From Octopus sinensis (lineage: Eukaryota): a stretch of 64,000 nt of DNA. The notes beneath the pieces are model-generated. The model had not been told where the DNA came from, did not search any database, and saw only the letters and a list, made by a program, of their open reading frames with translations. Both the position numbers and the translations under genes were made by a program. Of the stretch, positions 11,908-59,000 are shown piece by piece (within the stretch, counting starts at the first letter, position 1; each line of letters starts with the position of its first letter). The stretch lies in assembly GCF_006345805.1 (NCBI RefSeq), contig NC_042998.1:86800001-86864000 (forward strand), in the 5' to 3' direction.

Positions 11908-11983
11908 GTCTTACAGCCATTTATGAGATAACCCTAGTGGTTGGTTGGCATGTCCATGCACAGGGTATTCTGTCATCAGAGAC
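11908..11983 (-). ncRNA. Degenerate type I hammerhead motif (long stem II, GAAA changed to TAAA)
   Basis: Minus strand: gtct-CTGATGA-c-agaataccct...agggttatct-ca-TAAA-tggct-GTA-agac; stem I gtct/agac. Confidence 0.5.
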
Positions 11984-12360
11984 AAGGTATGAATACTTAG
12001 ACGAGGAAAATTTACAGATTACATGAAATGAAATTAATAGGATTAAAACAGAAAAACAAAGGAGTGAAAATAGAAGAATAAACAGTAAAAGTAGTTAGAA
12101 GAATATAGGCAAGAGAATTATTCTTCTAACTACTTTTAATCTGTATATTTCTATTTTATTCTTTATAAATTGTGATTTACATTCCTTGCAATCTGCAAAT
12201 TTTTCCCATCTAAATATTCATACCATGTCTCTGATGATGGAATAGCCATCCATATTTAAGTTCATGCAATTGAAACAACCACATTATGTATGGATGACCC
12301 AATATATACATACATACATACATACATACATACATACATATATATATATATATATATATA

Positions 12361-53000: not shown

Positions 53001-56000
53001 GTGGACAAATCAGAAGTAATAAGATGCTGTGCAAATTTTGAAATTGGATGGGGATGGAAGGCAAGTGACAGATGTAGAGATGGAGGTTAATGAGTGGGAA
53101 GACAGAAGTGATTAGGGAGTTGGGGCTGTCATCAATAGCAGATATGAGTGGGGTTGGAAAAGATATCTACATTGATGTAGATCCAAGGGAGCATACTCCC
53201 TCCATTCTTCTCCAGTCTTCACATGTCTTCTGTGTTCAGTGCCCACATCTCATACCAAGAAGCATTGCATTTCATGCCCAAGCATCATACAATCTGACTT
53301 TCACTCTGGTAGTTAATAGTCCTCTGAACATTCTCTGTCCTAGTCTTATTCTAATAATTAAACATTCAAAATATCTTGCTTCACTGCTAGTTAAGCCACC
53401 TAGATAGCAGAAATTATCTATGTCTCTAGAGAACCTCCTTGGCATTTGAGAAAATCTGTTTCCTGTGTGCCCTTAGCATTTGTGTTCCCAGTGCATCTTC
53501 CATATACAAAGATTACTTTTTCTAGGAATTACTGCTGAAATGCTTAAAAACTGCATAGGATATTATAAGTATGGTTAATCAGATTGTATAGGAAGGTGTC
53601 ATAGTCAATTGTTATAGAAGTAAAAAAATACCTTTATATATATATATATACTAGCATTAAAGACCCGTCGTTGCCGGGTCATAGTGCTAGTGCATGTATA
53701 TATGTGTATATATATGTGTACATATTACATGTACATCTATATATATACATCTACACATAAAATACAAAATACAAAGTTATATCTTGATATCGCTAGTGAT
53801 AACAATACTCAAAATATATAACAGACTGGAATTGTTAGCCCTTCTCTTGTAATTTCGATCAATTGTATCTTGTCCTCACTCTTGTATAGAGTTGTGGCTA
53901 CAATCCAGCCTACCTCTACTTCTGGGGAAGGGGGGCATTTTAATTTTTTTTCCGAGATGTCCTACGTCCCAGATATAAAGGTAAAAATAAAATATTTCCA
54001 CTTTGCAAGTTCGAGTCGAGTACTCCCTTGTATGCTCTGTTAACTCGAACCTTGCTTCTATTGTGGCGAATTTACCGCCTCTGATTAGATACCTTTCATA
54101 GTCGCACCAAGACACTTTTCGAAGGTGCTTTCCTCCATGTGTTCAAATCTTTTTTCTCTACATTGTATACTTTATAGACAATAGTCTTTTCTTTAATTTA
54201 ATTTTTTATTATCCATCTGGACTATTCCATTTCTGCACGCTAATTTTATTTTTAATTTATTCCCATTCATGTGAAACCACTTATTCAAGTTCAAGTCATT
54301 GAATGCAATTTTATACCAATTGCTATTTTTACTTTTGTTATATTACGCTTATATTATACTTTAGTTTGATTTTAATTATTACTTACTACATATAATTCAA
54401 TTGTTATTATTATTTTTACTGTTAAAGTGAAAGTATCTCGCATAAAATAGAGAAACGTTTTCTTTCACTTTTAACATGTAATACTGAAATAGTGGAGAAG
54501 ATATGATATTGCTATGGGCTCGCTCTAGGCAAGAAGTTGAACATTTTTTTCCCCATGAAACTACATGAACCCTAAGTAAGGCATGTGTAAAATTTGAATG
54601 GAATTGGTTGTGTAGTTCTCAAGTTTTAAGGAAACACACAGACAGACAGACAGACAGACACACATTCTCAGTTTTATATATATAAAGATATATATATGTG
54701 TGTGTGTGTGTGTGTGTGTGTGTTATGATGTGGTTATACACATCTGGTGTGAAATGATAATATACAAATAAATAGTTAGTTGTGGTTATCTTAAACTATC
54801 GCAGAAATATTTGTTAACACAGAATGCACTCTGTAATACTTGAGCGTAGGTGTGATACTTGCTAGTCACTGTTAAACTACCAACTGTTAAACCAACACGA
54901 TCAAACTAACACTTGTCAACTACTACCTGACATTTCACTTAGTTCTCAATTATTGTAATAGATTAGTTCACCTTATGTCATGTGGGTCTGTTCAGGTTTC
55001 TTCCATAACATTTCCCCTTTGATAGACGGCTTTGATGATGTATGTGGATATAATTATCATCATTTAACATCCAGTTTTTATGCCAGCATGTGTTGAATAG
55101 TTTGACAGGATCTGACAAGCCATAGGTCTATGGTTTCTATGGCTGGATACCCTTCTTAACACCAGCAACTTTACAGTGTGTATATGTATAGGTATAAAAA
55201 TATATGTATAATATATATATATATATATATATATACATATATATATATATATATATATATATATATATATATATATGTGTGTGTGTGTGTGTGTGTGTGT
55301 GTGTGTGTATATAAATACATCCATACACATTACTGTTTTAATAACCCTAATATTTTCATACTGGTCTGTTGTACAGTTTATCATATCACTATTTGTAACA
55401 GTTTCCTTTGTTTCCTCAACTGGGATGTGCAACGTACTAAAAGGAATGTTAGGAAAAATAGAAATGTAATACTGTGTACATGAATTATATTTTACAATGA
55501 ATTAAAGATAAAATGAAATAATTTTAAACTTAATTTCAGGATGGAAAGTTTACATCAAATGCTTCTGTATGGATCCAAGTTGAGGATGTTCAAGACAAGC
55601 CACCAGCATTTATACATTCCTGTTCTGTTGAGAAAATCAAGGAAAATTCAAACAAGGTAATACATTACATTTCCAGTTCAGTTTTTATTGTTTATTGTTT
55701 TGGAGAGAAATAATTACAAAAAGAAACTGATTATCATTTAATGCCTGTTGTCCATGCTTGCATGTGTTGGATGATTTGCCCAGGGCTGATAATCTAAGGT
55801 GTTGCATCAGAATCCTGTCTGATTTGGCATGGTTTCTATGGCTGGATGCCCTTCCTAACACTGACACCTCTGAGAGTTTAGTGAGTGCTTTTATATGTCG
55901 CTGGCACAGGTACCAGTTGTGTGACACCAGTATTTGCCACGACTATGACTTCACTTGGTCTGATGGCTCTTCTCAAGCACAGCATATTGCTAGGAATCTC

Positions 56001-59000
56001 AGTCACTAGTCATTACCTCTGTGAGATCCAACATTTGAAGATCATGCTTCACTACCTTGTTCCATGTCTTCTTTGGTCTACCTCTACAACAAATTCCCTC
56101 TACAGTTAGAGATCAGCACTTCTTTACACAGCTGTACTTGTCCATGCACATCACATAACGATACCCGTGCAGTTGTCTCTCTTGCACATCACATCGGATG
56201 ACTTTTATGCCTTACAAGACATCAACACTTTGTTGTAGACACTGACATTATACGTCCGAGGAAGCATACTAGCTTCATTTCTTTCAAGCCCATGCATGTC
56301 CTCAGTAGTCACAGTCCATGTTTATCTATGTTTATGTATAAATTCATGTTTAATTGTTCTGTATGTATGTCCGCGTGTTTGTATATTATGCATACATGCC
56401 CACACCATCATTTGATCTACACATTTCCATGCTTGCATTAGTTGGATGAAATTTATGGAGATAGATTTTTTTTACAGCCAGATACTCTTCCTGATACCAA
56501 CCTTCACCTGTTTCCAAGTGAGGTGATATTCCCTGTGGCCAGACACGTATTTCTGTCGAATATTGGAAACAACTTCATGGCTTGTATGATGGTGTTGATC
56601 ATTTACAATCTTCATGTGATGTCAGGACAAGGGCACACACATACACACATACACACACATGAAGAAACGTCATATATATATATATATATATATATATATA
56701 TATATATATATATATATATATATATATCGTATAGCAAAGTCTTATATTTCTACATATACATTAGGGAAAACCTTCGGCTTTGTTTATTTCATGTTATTGT
56801 ATTGTATAGGATTACCTTGATTTTTAATTTATAGATGATCTAAAATAGGGTGTTATATTTTATATGTCTTTCGTATATTTTTCATTATTGCACTCACCTT
56901 TTTTTAAAAAGCAATGTTGTCAAAAATTAGAATTTTGATATAAATATGTGTATAGCCATGGATATGTATTTGTAAGCATGCGTATCTGTGTATGTGTAAG
57001 TGAGCGTATGTTTGTGCTTAAGCACACACATACACGACTGTATGTGTATGTATCCATTCGAACTCGTGTATTTGTATACTTGTCTCCATATATGTCAATA
57101 ATGCGGTTACACAGCTTGTTACATAATTTTTCTTATTTCGTTTTTTTCCCCACCCCTCCTTTTTCTTTTTTCCTTCCCCCTTCTTCGTTCCTTTTTCTCT
57201 CTCTTCCTTTCTTTTGTTTTTTTCTCTAACTGATACTGATACAACTTTACGTCCCCCTTACTTAAGCTTTACTCAGTAAATGAGAAACACTACATCGATG
57301 ATTTTAACTTGCGTGCGAGATAGATTGCGTACATATATGTATGCATGCATTTGTGTGTATATTTTAGATTTATGTTTATACGTCTGTATATGTATGGCGT
57401 TTGCACGCATCCTTCTGTGTATGTTGATATATATATGTACACTTTAATATGAATATGTATTGCAGTGTAATATTTATAATAAGTTTTAATTTCTATGCAT
57501 TAATTATATTTTCTTCATTAACGTCCATATGTATTTTATTGAATGTAAGGTTTTTTCCTCGAATTTTATAATTTTTATAATTTTTATAATTTTTATAATT
57601 TTTTTATATATATATACATATATTTTTGAGCTCTTTTTTTGTTTATCGCTCGAAGATTGACCGTTATTTCTAAAGGGCCAATCAAACAAGTCTATTTTTT
57701 TAAAAGGTGTAGCGTTTGAAAGAGTCTGGATTGAATTGATATATCGGTTCCATTCTACCAAAAACTGTCTGATGAACGGCAACGAGAAACTCAGAGTAAC
57801 AGATTTTGTTGAATTTTCTGCTGCTTTAAATAAAGTATATATATATATATATATATATATATATATATATATATATATATATATGTATATATAATGGTCT
57901 TCTTTCAGTTCCCATCTACCAAATCCACTCACAAGGCTTTGGTTAGCCTTTGACAACTGTAGAAGACACTTGCCTTAGATGTCACAACATAGGACTCGAC
58001 CCAAAACCACATGATTGGGAAGCATGCATCTTAGCCACATCACCATGTTTGTACCTATATATCTATACATACATGCACATACACAGCCATGTCTGTGCAT
58101 ACACACACACACAGATAAGTTTATGTGGGTGTGGGTGTGTGTGTATGTCTACATACATCTATGTATATATGTTTTTATATATATACCTGGGTATTTTCTG
58201 TGTGTGTTTATGTCTTTATGCATATGTATGTCTATATGTGGTGTATATGTCTGTGCATGTGTATATATCTATGTTTACCATTCAATATATGTGAAAGTGG
58301 TTATTGTGCATATATGTCGGTACATGTTTGTGTGAGTATGTATATCTTGGCGTGTATATATATATATATATATATATATATATATATATATATACATACA
58401 TACATACATACATATATATATATATATATATATATATATATATATATATATATATATATATATATATATATATATATATATCATATATATATCATATGAT
58501 ATATATATATATACATATATATATCTACTATATATGTGGAAATCTGTGGGTGTGTTCGTTTGTGGTGTTGTTATCTAACTCCTCCTACATCATTTTATTG
58601 ATTTTGACGAAACTTGAAACGTGAGTAGAACTCAAGTCTGGAAAATTAGTTACATACTTAGATTGTTGTAAAATATCGACAATAGGGCCCCTGGAAGGGT
58701 TTCTTATATCTACTACATATAACTAATATATTATTTTTAAGCATCTAGGGAAAATGACCCATTTGCTCCTGAAACGTAGCCTTATATATAACCAAGGGAA
58801 ATAACCCATTCATGTTTGTAGATTTTTTCGTCTAAATGAAATTGAGTATGCTTATTTCTTAGTATTTGAACTATTTGTGTTATTTTCGCAATTTATCCAG
58901 TACAACTCTTAAACAAGTAATTAGTATTTTCCTAAACAACAGATTTACTTATTTCAGTTAGTGACTTATTCACGAATATACCAACACTAGCACTGCTGAG

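Follow-up and report, generated by a model that had tools for sequence, protein, structure and literature searches.

The question raised by this stretch of the Octopus sinensis genome is why hammerhead ribozyme motifs of several unrelated sequences should lie together in one place, beside (TA)n tracts and remnants of Penelope-like elements (PLEs). The window, i.e., the whole 64-kb stretch that was analyzed (contig C2:86800001-86864000), belongs to a microsatellite-rich genome of 2.72 Gb. An original prediction, made from the letters alone, had described the locus as an "ecosystem" of hammerheads, in which several PLE lineages and non-autonomous ribozyme parasites target TA microsatellites. We conclude that the motifs are very probably type I hammerhead folds in the 3' untranslated regions (UTRs) or pseudo-long terminal repeats (pLTRs) of several Hydra- and Neptune-type PLEs, and in one 352-nt tandem repeat, and that the PLE enzyme likely placed these elements at (TA)n. 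The observation behind the prediction was partly confirmed, and its interpretation is partly supported.

All 11 motif positions that had been cited were recovered, exactly or within approximately 50 nt. They fall into six families, in line with the claim of at least six, and represent about eight insertions: A (20963), B (12481 and 45800), C (32144/32196), D (57765), F (11908/12227), and G (21690, 30580, and 31870). In a self-comparison of the window, motifs match within families only. A seventh family, E at 24229(+), had been missed and lies directly downstream of a GIY-YIG remnant. The relevant features of the window are the following:

11850..12248, both strands: family F, an old head-to-head pair with a long stem II, both copies dead; 260 candidates genome-wide.
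12358..12850, minus: family B 3' end, ending in (TA)n, with a hammerhead at approximately 12480-12523; 2288 candidates genome-wide.
20798..21172, minus: family A, one 352-nt monomer plus a terminal repeat of approximately 20 nt, (TA)n-flanked.
20963-21007, minus: family A hammerhead, canonical type I, predicted cleavage after 20969.
21540..21860, minus: 3' end of family G, degenerate and older, with 73% identity to young copies, motif at approximately 21675-21715.
22932..23209, minus: G-type Neptune GIY-YIG remnant, 86% identical in nucleotides to locus L299, treated as separate from the 21540-21860 piece.
23481..24330, plus: family E, GIY-YIG C-terminal remnant (to approximately 23730) and 3' UTR of a Neptune-type PLE.
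24224-24268, plus: family E hammerhead, U.U at 10.1-11.1, GUAC palindrome.
30419..32056: head-to-head insertion of family G (minus arm 30419-30913, plus arm 30919-32056), (TA)n-flanked, 3' UTR of a Neptune-type PLE.
Approximately 30575-30615 (minus) and 31867-31907 (plus): family G motifs, U3-A8 core, weak stem I.
32057..32261: family C fold-back mini-insertion in (TA)n, with a tailed arm (32057-32192, minus) and a tail-less arm (32196-32261, plus).
45780..46018, plus: family B copy, dead, truncated within the core, with part of its own tail in inverted orientation before it.
56742..57840, plus: family D hammerhead at 57765-57802, in the 3' UTR of another Hydra-clade PLE; the copy ends in (TA)n and the family has 1083 candidates.
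62466..63324, plus: broken Hydra-clade remnant of reverse transcriptase (RT) thumb, linker and GIY-YIG, with 39 of 60 residues identical (by eye) to a stretch of Hydra-1_Obim.

Several of the cited motifs had been labeled core-intact. The label holds fully for the family A motif at 20963(-), which is canonical, with a stem I of 6 bp, a G10.1-C11.1 pair, a stem II of 5 bp and a CUCGAG palindrome; the other cited motifs are variant or dead. The family B motif at 12481(-) has an intact core, with an additional G after A9 and a stem I of just 3 uninterrupted pairs. The two C motifs at 32144(-)/32196(+) are a single head-to-head insertion, with U.U at 10.1-11.1 and a plus arm short of one stem I base, the D motif at 57765(+) has A.A at 10.1-11.1, and in the F pair at 11908(-)/12227(+) the left arm reads UAAA for GAAA and the right arm is truncated at 12248. 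The CUGANGA/GAAA/UH core, said to be common to all families, is present in A, B, C, D, and E in the window and in genome copies of F, all of which are by this core predicted type I hammerheads with an open stem I. Family G departs from it: UUGANAA replaces CUGANGA and stem I has 2 bp in a family of 2139 candidates genome-wide. We had initially taken G to be coreless, and a U3-A8 variant was then parsed in 19 of 20 loci, among them four that are window copies or duplicates of these. At 10.1-11.1 the G-C pair is confined to A and B; C and E have U.U, D has A.A, and F and G have C.A. The unpaired position was dropped as a novelty, as such variants are already in the S2 table of Craig et al. (2021; PMC8557442). 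The hammerheads would act as dimers, by way of their palindromic stem III.

Pairing was assessed on 70 loci of a tight genome-wide pattern (the first 30 matches plus 40 regions picked from 100 listed, in favor of distinct motifs and head-to-head pairs). With pairing not imposed, the 49 distinct cores have a stem I of at least 3 bp in 30 cases, a stem II of at least 3 bp in 29, a perfect palindrome in 22 and all three in 13, vs. 6, 12, 6, and 0% of 308 shuffled matches to a looser pattern. Stem covariation, the absence of which had been named as a refutation of the prediction, is seen among subfamilies. Fifteen A-like sequences, chosen by their flanks and with core columns fixed by the search pattern, hold 21 double-sided stem changes against 10.5 after shuffling, a number that 0 of 500 shuffles reach; pairing drops when the partners are slid, and 10.1-11.1 is unpaired in 11 of the 15.

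It is possible, though on the unlikely side, that the hammerheads are mostly inert baggage, real folds whose cleavage is unneeded for spread; such a role would be compatible with our conclusion. Family G, whose stem I has 2 bp, has reached more than 2000 candidates, the insertions extend across the cleavage site, and ribozyme mutants of an anole PLE still insert in vitro (Frangieh et al., 2024; PMC11167929). What speaks against baggage is the retention of cores while stems covary across subfamilies, and an A relative on one contig of run X17 (depth 5.9), in which seven changes within the motif spare the core and include a paired change from G-C to A-U at 10.1-11.1.

Matches to a short motif may also arise by chance in AT-rich DNA. 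A strict descriptor finds 1 match in the window (shuffle mean 0.02, reached in 4 of 200 shuffles), and a loose descriptor that allows a mismatch beside the core, written after the motifs had been seen, finds 5 (shuffle mean 0.22, reached in 0 of 200). For the genome we sampled 100 random 10-kb stretches (1 Mb) with a revised descriptor and 12 shuffles. This yielded 24 motifs in 16 stretches, far above the 0-2 (mean 0.83) of the shuffled DNA to which the prediction had proposed to compare them, an excess of approximately 29-fold. Stem I has at least 4 bp in 21 of the 24 (shuffle mean 0.33), and G10.1-C11.1 occurs in 6. Extrapolation gives 56,000-63,000 motifs (approximately 60,000; bootstrap range 26,000-107,000), or approximately 20 per Mb, so that the expectation of a very large genome-wide load is borne out. 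The tight pattern, with no pairing rule, has 10,083 matches in the whole genome vs. 539 for a reversed control (19-fold), and the random sample contains 4 of its matches where 3.7 are expected. For U3-A8 cores the random Mb shows no excess (1 match vs. 0-2 in shuffles). A long stem II (approximately 30-60 nt) is common among the sampled hammerheads (L183, L190, L196, L217, L224, L241, L243, L244, and L266), and such motifs escape both the short-stem descriptors and the tight pattern.

The predicted targeting of (TA)n is likewise seen in the sample: a (TA)6 tract lies within 200 nt downstream of 17 of the 24 motifs and upstream of 5 of 23 only, compared to 41 of 457 (9%) other CUGANGA sites and 12% of random positions. 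An Rfam scan of the window gave 0 hammerhead families among 147 matches at E ≤ 10, and 7 of the 49 pattern cores lack stem I, as chance matches might. Given the 19-fold and 29-fold excesses and the strand-specific TA association, chance is refuted for the set and has next to no probability, although individual weak matches may be of this kind. The miRNA and snoRNA matches of the same scan were rejected, as they trace to microsatellites and to the family C palindrome. The window itself is not significantly enriched: the revised descriptor finds 4 matches where about 1.5 are expected (P 0.07 Poisson, 0.12 empirical), and its 0.72 (TA)6 tracts per kb are below the 1.0 of the sample. The 4 matches fit the genome background, and the presumed ecosystem is therefore the normal state of the genome.

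Families C, D, E, and G are attached to PLE open reading frames (ORFs), in agreement with the idea of several PLE lineages, here of Hydra and Neptune type. An RT followed by a C-terminal GIY-YIG domain lies upstream of the hammerhead in C (L286), D (L290, L291), and G (L299), as judged from motifs read by eye and BLAST among the loci. The C hammerhead lies approximately 3.3 kb below a Hydra-type ORF, which one copy, L286, reaches, and the D hammerhead approximately 1 kb below such an ORF in the long copies L290 and L291; the two host proteins are 38-46% identical to each other. The CxCX5C linker, the CxxC and CxH of the endonuclease and the (TA)n target of the Hydra clade are found in the C and D hosts and in the remnant at 62466. 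A search for family D with a 72-nt query gave no matches and carries no weight. In the long C copies (L281-L289) the 3' UTR of approximately 3.3 kb includes approximately 2 kb of a degenerate GT/AT-rich minisatellite. At 63700-63770(+), the 3' UTR of the Hydra remnant resembles by eye parts of the Hydra-1_Obim hammerhead and may be a deleted eighth motif.

For family E (1506 candidates, other copies 84-89% identical) the RT and GIY-YIG pieces of the host occur in separate copies (L094, L101, and L110). Both the E and the G hosts have the CX2-5CxxC linker before GIY-YIG that marks the Neptune clade, a motif-based assignment, made with no tree, that does not formally separate Neptune from Nematis. 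It also makes use of RT motifs that we take to be typical of Neptune. For all hosts, clades were assigned from the linker motifs of Craig et al. (2021) and not from a tree. The segment 22880-23200 was at first taken as part of the plus-strand E element and proved to be the minus-strand G-type remnant. The window holds three GIY-YIG remnants, not the two that had been described; a Pfam search of window fragments returned no match to a GIY-YIG family.

Family A is of a different kind. It has 2030 candidates, of which the best copies are 98-100% identical, in arrays of one to approximately four units; it has no ORF, (TA)n at one or both ends of nearly all copies, two alternative 3' ends and frequent inverted arms. 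Its predicted circular fold is strong (z = -6.9), and in the arrays L009, L013, L014, L022, and L030 private substitutions are common to all units that cover the site. Two listed partial matches start at query position 206-207, at the cleavage site (by eye; too few vs. chance). As a non-coding tandem monomer of 150-450 nt with a type I hammerhead per unit it has the structure of a retrozyme without long terminal repeats (non-LTR retrozyme), and it is, judged by its sequence, a young retrozyme-like tandem element. Older relatives of A (75-93% identical) near the young copies at L024, L020, and L227 indicate earlier waves of the 352-nt unit. Sequence of family A is also present in runs X5 and X16-X20 under other organism labels (B, D, E, F, and G), and is probably shared with related species.

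That most motifs are independent non-autonomous ribozyme parasites, as had been supposed, is improbable to us. It would suit the non-coding, tandem A and the lack of a host for B and F in the loci examined; C, D, E, and G continue upstream into PLE ORFs, so that four of the seven families are 5'-truncated ends of coding PLEs, and A is the only demonstrated non-coding tandem unit. Several points nevertheless weigh against our account. No host element for B or F was found among the loci examined, no mobilizing partner was found for A, and in two A arrays, L005 and L019, the units are not alike. We loosened the descriptor after inspecting the window, the 70 loci and the 15 A-like rows were partly hand-picked, and sequence relatedness can beat the shuffle control. 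Variants of run X1 at 20981-20982 break the first two pairs of stem II, with no partner change listed, and for C, D, and F the hammerhead shape is not recovered when the monomer is folded.

The insertions terminate at either of two fixed positions shortly 3' of the ribozyme, which correspond to the PLE tail, and head-to-head arrangements are frequent. Two 3' ends together with an inverted, 5'-truncated arm are found in A, B, C, and G. In the anole Poseidon PLE the protein nicks AT-rich DNA and reverse transcription of uncleaved RNA begins internally, at two sites below the hammerhead, which gives rise to a tail (Frangieh et al., 2024). The two 3' ends fit these internal starts. By analogy with the published biochemistry, the GIY-YIG domain would nick TA repeats, and the RT would start at an internal site a short way downstream of the hammerhead, using RNA left uncleaved there. 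We propose further that a tandem PLE transcript would carry a second hammerhead near its 5' end; from initiation at this 5' hammerhead a short cDNA would extend as far as the upstream pLTR's transcription start and run off there, and two such short arms, joined head-to-head, would form a mini-palindrome. Family A likely uses the PLE machinery as well, possibly via a circular monomer.

Many mini-palindromes likely derive, as DNA copies, from the initial part of the element RNA only. With somewhat more confidence than doubt, we suggest that the thousands of tiny hammerhead palindromes would have arisen by internal initiation at the upstream pLTR, as run-off cDNAs of a PLE RNA 5' leader that is capped and in some cases spliced. 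The arms of family C meet at the 5' edge of stem I. Genome-wide there are 425 fold-backs in which the two arms end inside a spacer of 30 nt, and on contig C1 we counted by eye 31 of them vs. 14 insertions continuing upstream among the matches listed. When 30 C copies were taken regardless of their 5' side, 11 stop at most 17 nt from stem I, 1 in the next approximately 113 nt, and 18 run on. Exactly one arm is fully tailed in 13 of 15 C fold-backs. A TATAAA begins 29 nt above the C stop base in 5 of 5 long copies checked. Of 11 listed ends that have no upstream template or usual fold-back join, 6 show an untemplated G ahead of the stop base (by eye). An extra G is produced when reverse transcriptases copy an RNA cap. 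A spliced leader was sought in C and was not found.

Such a leader is apparent in family H, which lies outside the window and is the commonest match of the tight genome-wide pattern (C1 loci L301-L370, L114, L117, and L201), with many close head-to-head pairs. Its long copies have a short exon, a donor, an intron of 1.05-1.29 kb and an AG acceptor shortly before stem I; in the short arms the exon is joined directly, and the arm ends within approximately 30 nt beyond the junction. Among 30 H arm contexts, some of them from overlapping loci, 14 are spliced (exon-exon junction), 9 unspliced and 7 other. In copy L370 the distance from donor to acceptor is 1,288 nt, and a contig of run X15 skips exactly a 1,288-nt H stretch with GT-AG ends. 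The host ORF of H was not found.

Two other explanations of these ends deserve attention. One is a structural stop, in which the RT or the cDNA stalls or snaps back at the ribozyme fold and no transcription start is involved. The C arms do stop exactly at the 5' strand of stem I, and their end is a 4-nt self-complementary word able to join two arms. The H arms, by contrast, end 14-35 nt above the core, past the spliced junction, no such stop is seen in A, and C has the TATAAA at -29 and the extra G; we regard a structural stop as unlikely. The other, which appears to us a little less likely again, is that the mini-palindromes are a non-autonomous fold-back family of their own, copied from a palindromic master. 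The C arms are 95-100% identical between loci, and by eye 20 of 50 listed C junctions are one perfect palindrome, with 11 more differing from it by one base. The remaining 19 differ, several of them with locally templated inserts or retained upstream bases that are not derivable by deletion, and the pattern recurs in the unrelated H, where each of three exon variants is found in long as well as short copies.

The run-off model has its own difficulties. A palindromic master could also yield the approximately 31 of 50 C junctions that are one of two sequences, the 5'-edge hot spot of D rests on a single locus, and none is evident in F or in the A copies. In H, the donor reads GA and not GT in 3 of 5 long copies, and no GT copy of that exon variant was seen.

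The remainder of the window is ordinary repeat DNA, including fragments of non-LTR reverse transcriptases and of transposases. An inverted-repeat element resembling a miniature inverted-repeat transposable element (76% self-complementary over approximately 340 nt) lies at 11210-11812, immediately to the left of the F pair. A 331-codon open frame at 38899-39894(+), with a weak zf-RVT match and related pieces at 34109-38592 and 60405, has what looks like the end of a non-LTR element with a restriction-like endonuclease. Contig C9003, likely a haplotig, carries a duplicate of much of the window, and the B/F region recurs approximately 151 kb upstream at 99% identity (C2:86659304-86662884); both duplications (loci L033 and L143) inflate the copy lists.

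As a class these motifs are known, and the octopus families are mostly further members of the known PLE hammerhead system. Minimal type I hammerheads were described in PLE pLTRs at approximately 2,000-9,000 per genome, with G10.1-C11.1 highly conserved (Cervera and De la Peña, 2014; PMC4209133). The octopus resembles those genomes in its many families, short palindromic helix III, extra base after position 9, U3-A8 variant, and mostly single truncated copies and opposite-strand pairs, and differs in the estimated 60,000 motifs and in the fraction of sampled motifs with the G-C pair. Craig et al. (2021) reported Hydra-clade PLEs with (TA)n preference and a 3' hammerhead, including Hydra-1_Obim of Octopus bimaculoides, and tabulated U.U and C.A beside the core. 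With these PLEs our C and D share the CxCX5C linker, CxxC and CxH, (TA)n preference, 3' hammerhead, and inverted 5'-truncated arm with tail, and the stems I and III of D are common to Hydra-2_Amil. Families C and D are nonetheless further families, C with its 3.3-kb repeat-rich 3' UTR, and the available text of that study describes no fold-back hot spot like that of C.

Tandem non-LTR retrozymes with a proposed PLE origin are known from animals (Cervera and De la Peña, 2020, PMC7229834; Li et al., 2026, bioRxiv 10.64898/2026.07.22.740005). Family A is similar in its low-GC tandem monomer of approximately 350 nt with one type I hammerhead, no ORF and a genome with PLEs; in A, the PLE tail, inversions and (TA)n targeting are directly visible, and the family is known here from DNA alone. 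The main text of Cervera and De la Peña (2020) mentions no octopus or cephalopod, and the words "ribozyme" and "hammerhead" are absent from the available text of an O. vulgaris repeat paper (PMC13282606). D. virilis Penelope has a pLTR start site and a 5'-UTR intron (as described in PMC4209133 and PMC8557442). Together with anole Poseidon it parallels the octopus elements in the two internal RT starts, AT-rich targets, uncleaved template, and a pLTR transcription start with an intron ending at helix I. PLEs are described as intron-retaining, whereas the octopus H copies lack the intron when short and have it when long. Apparently new are the C fold-backs that stop at the ribozyme 5' edge 29 nt below TATAAA and the spliced short H arms; neither spliced fold-back minis nor a cephalopod hammerhead census was found in the literature within reach, which did not extend to subscription papers, Repbase and bioRxiv supplements.

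The many families and core variants (non-paired 10.1-11.1, U3-A8, and long stem II) offer a large natural assay panel. The part worth pursuing is the set of spliced, putatively start-site-terminated minis, in which spliced short arms and a TATA-positioned stop provide hundreds of young, near-identical events for testing a specific model. The PLE insertion cycle and the reason for intron retention in PLEs are stated as open in published papers. If our reading is true, the minis would map the promoter, start site and leader intron of each family from DNA alone, and would explain the apparent intron retention of PLEs, with long copies derived from the unspliced 3' pLTR copy and short ones from the spliced 5' copy.

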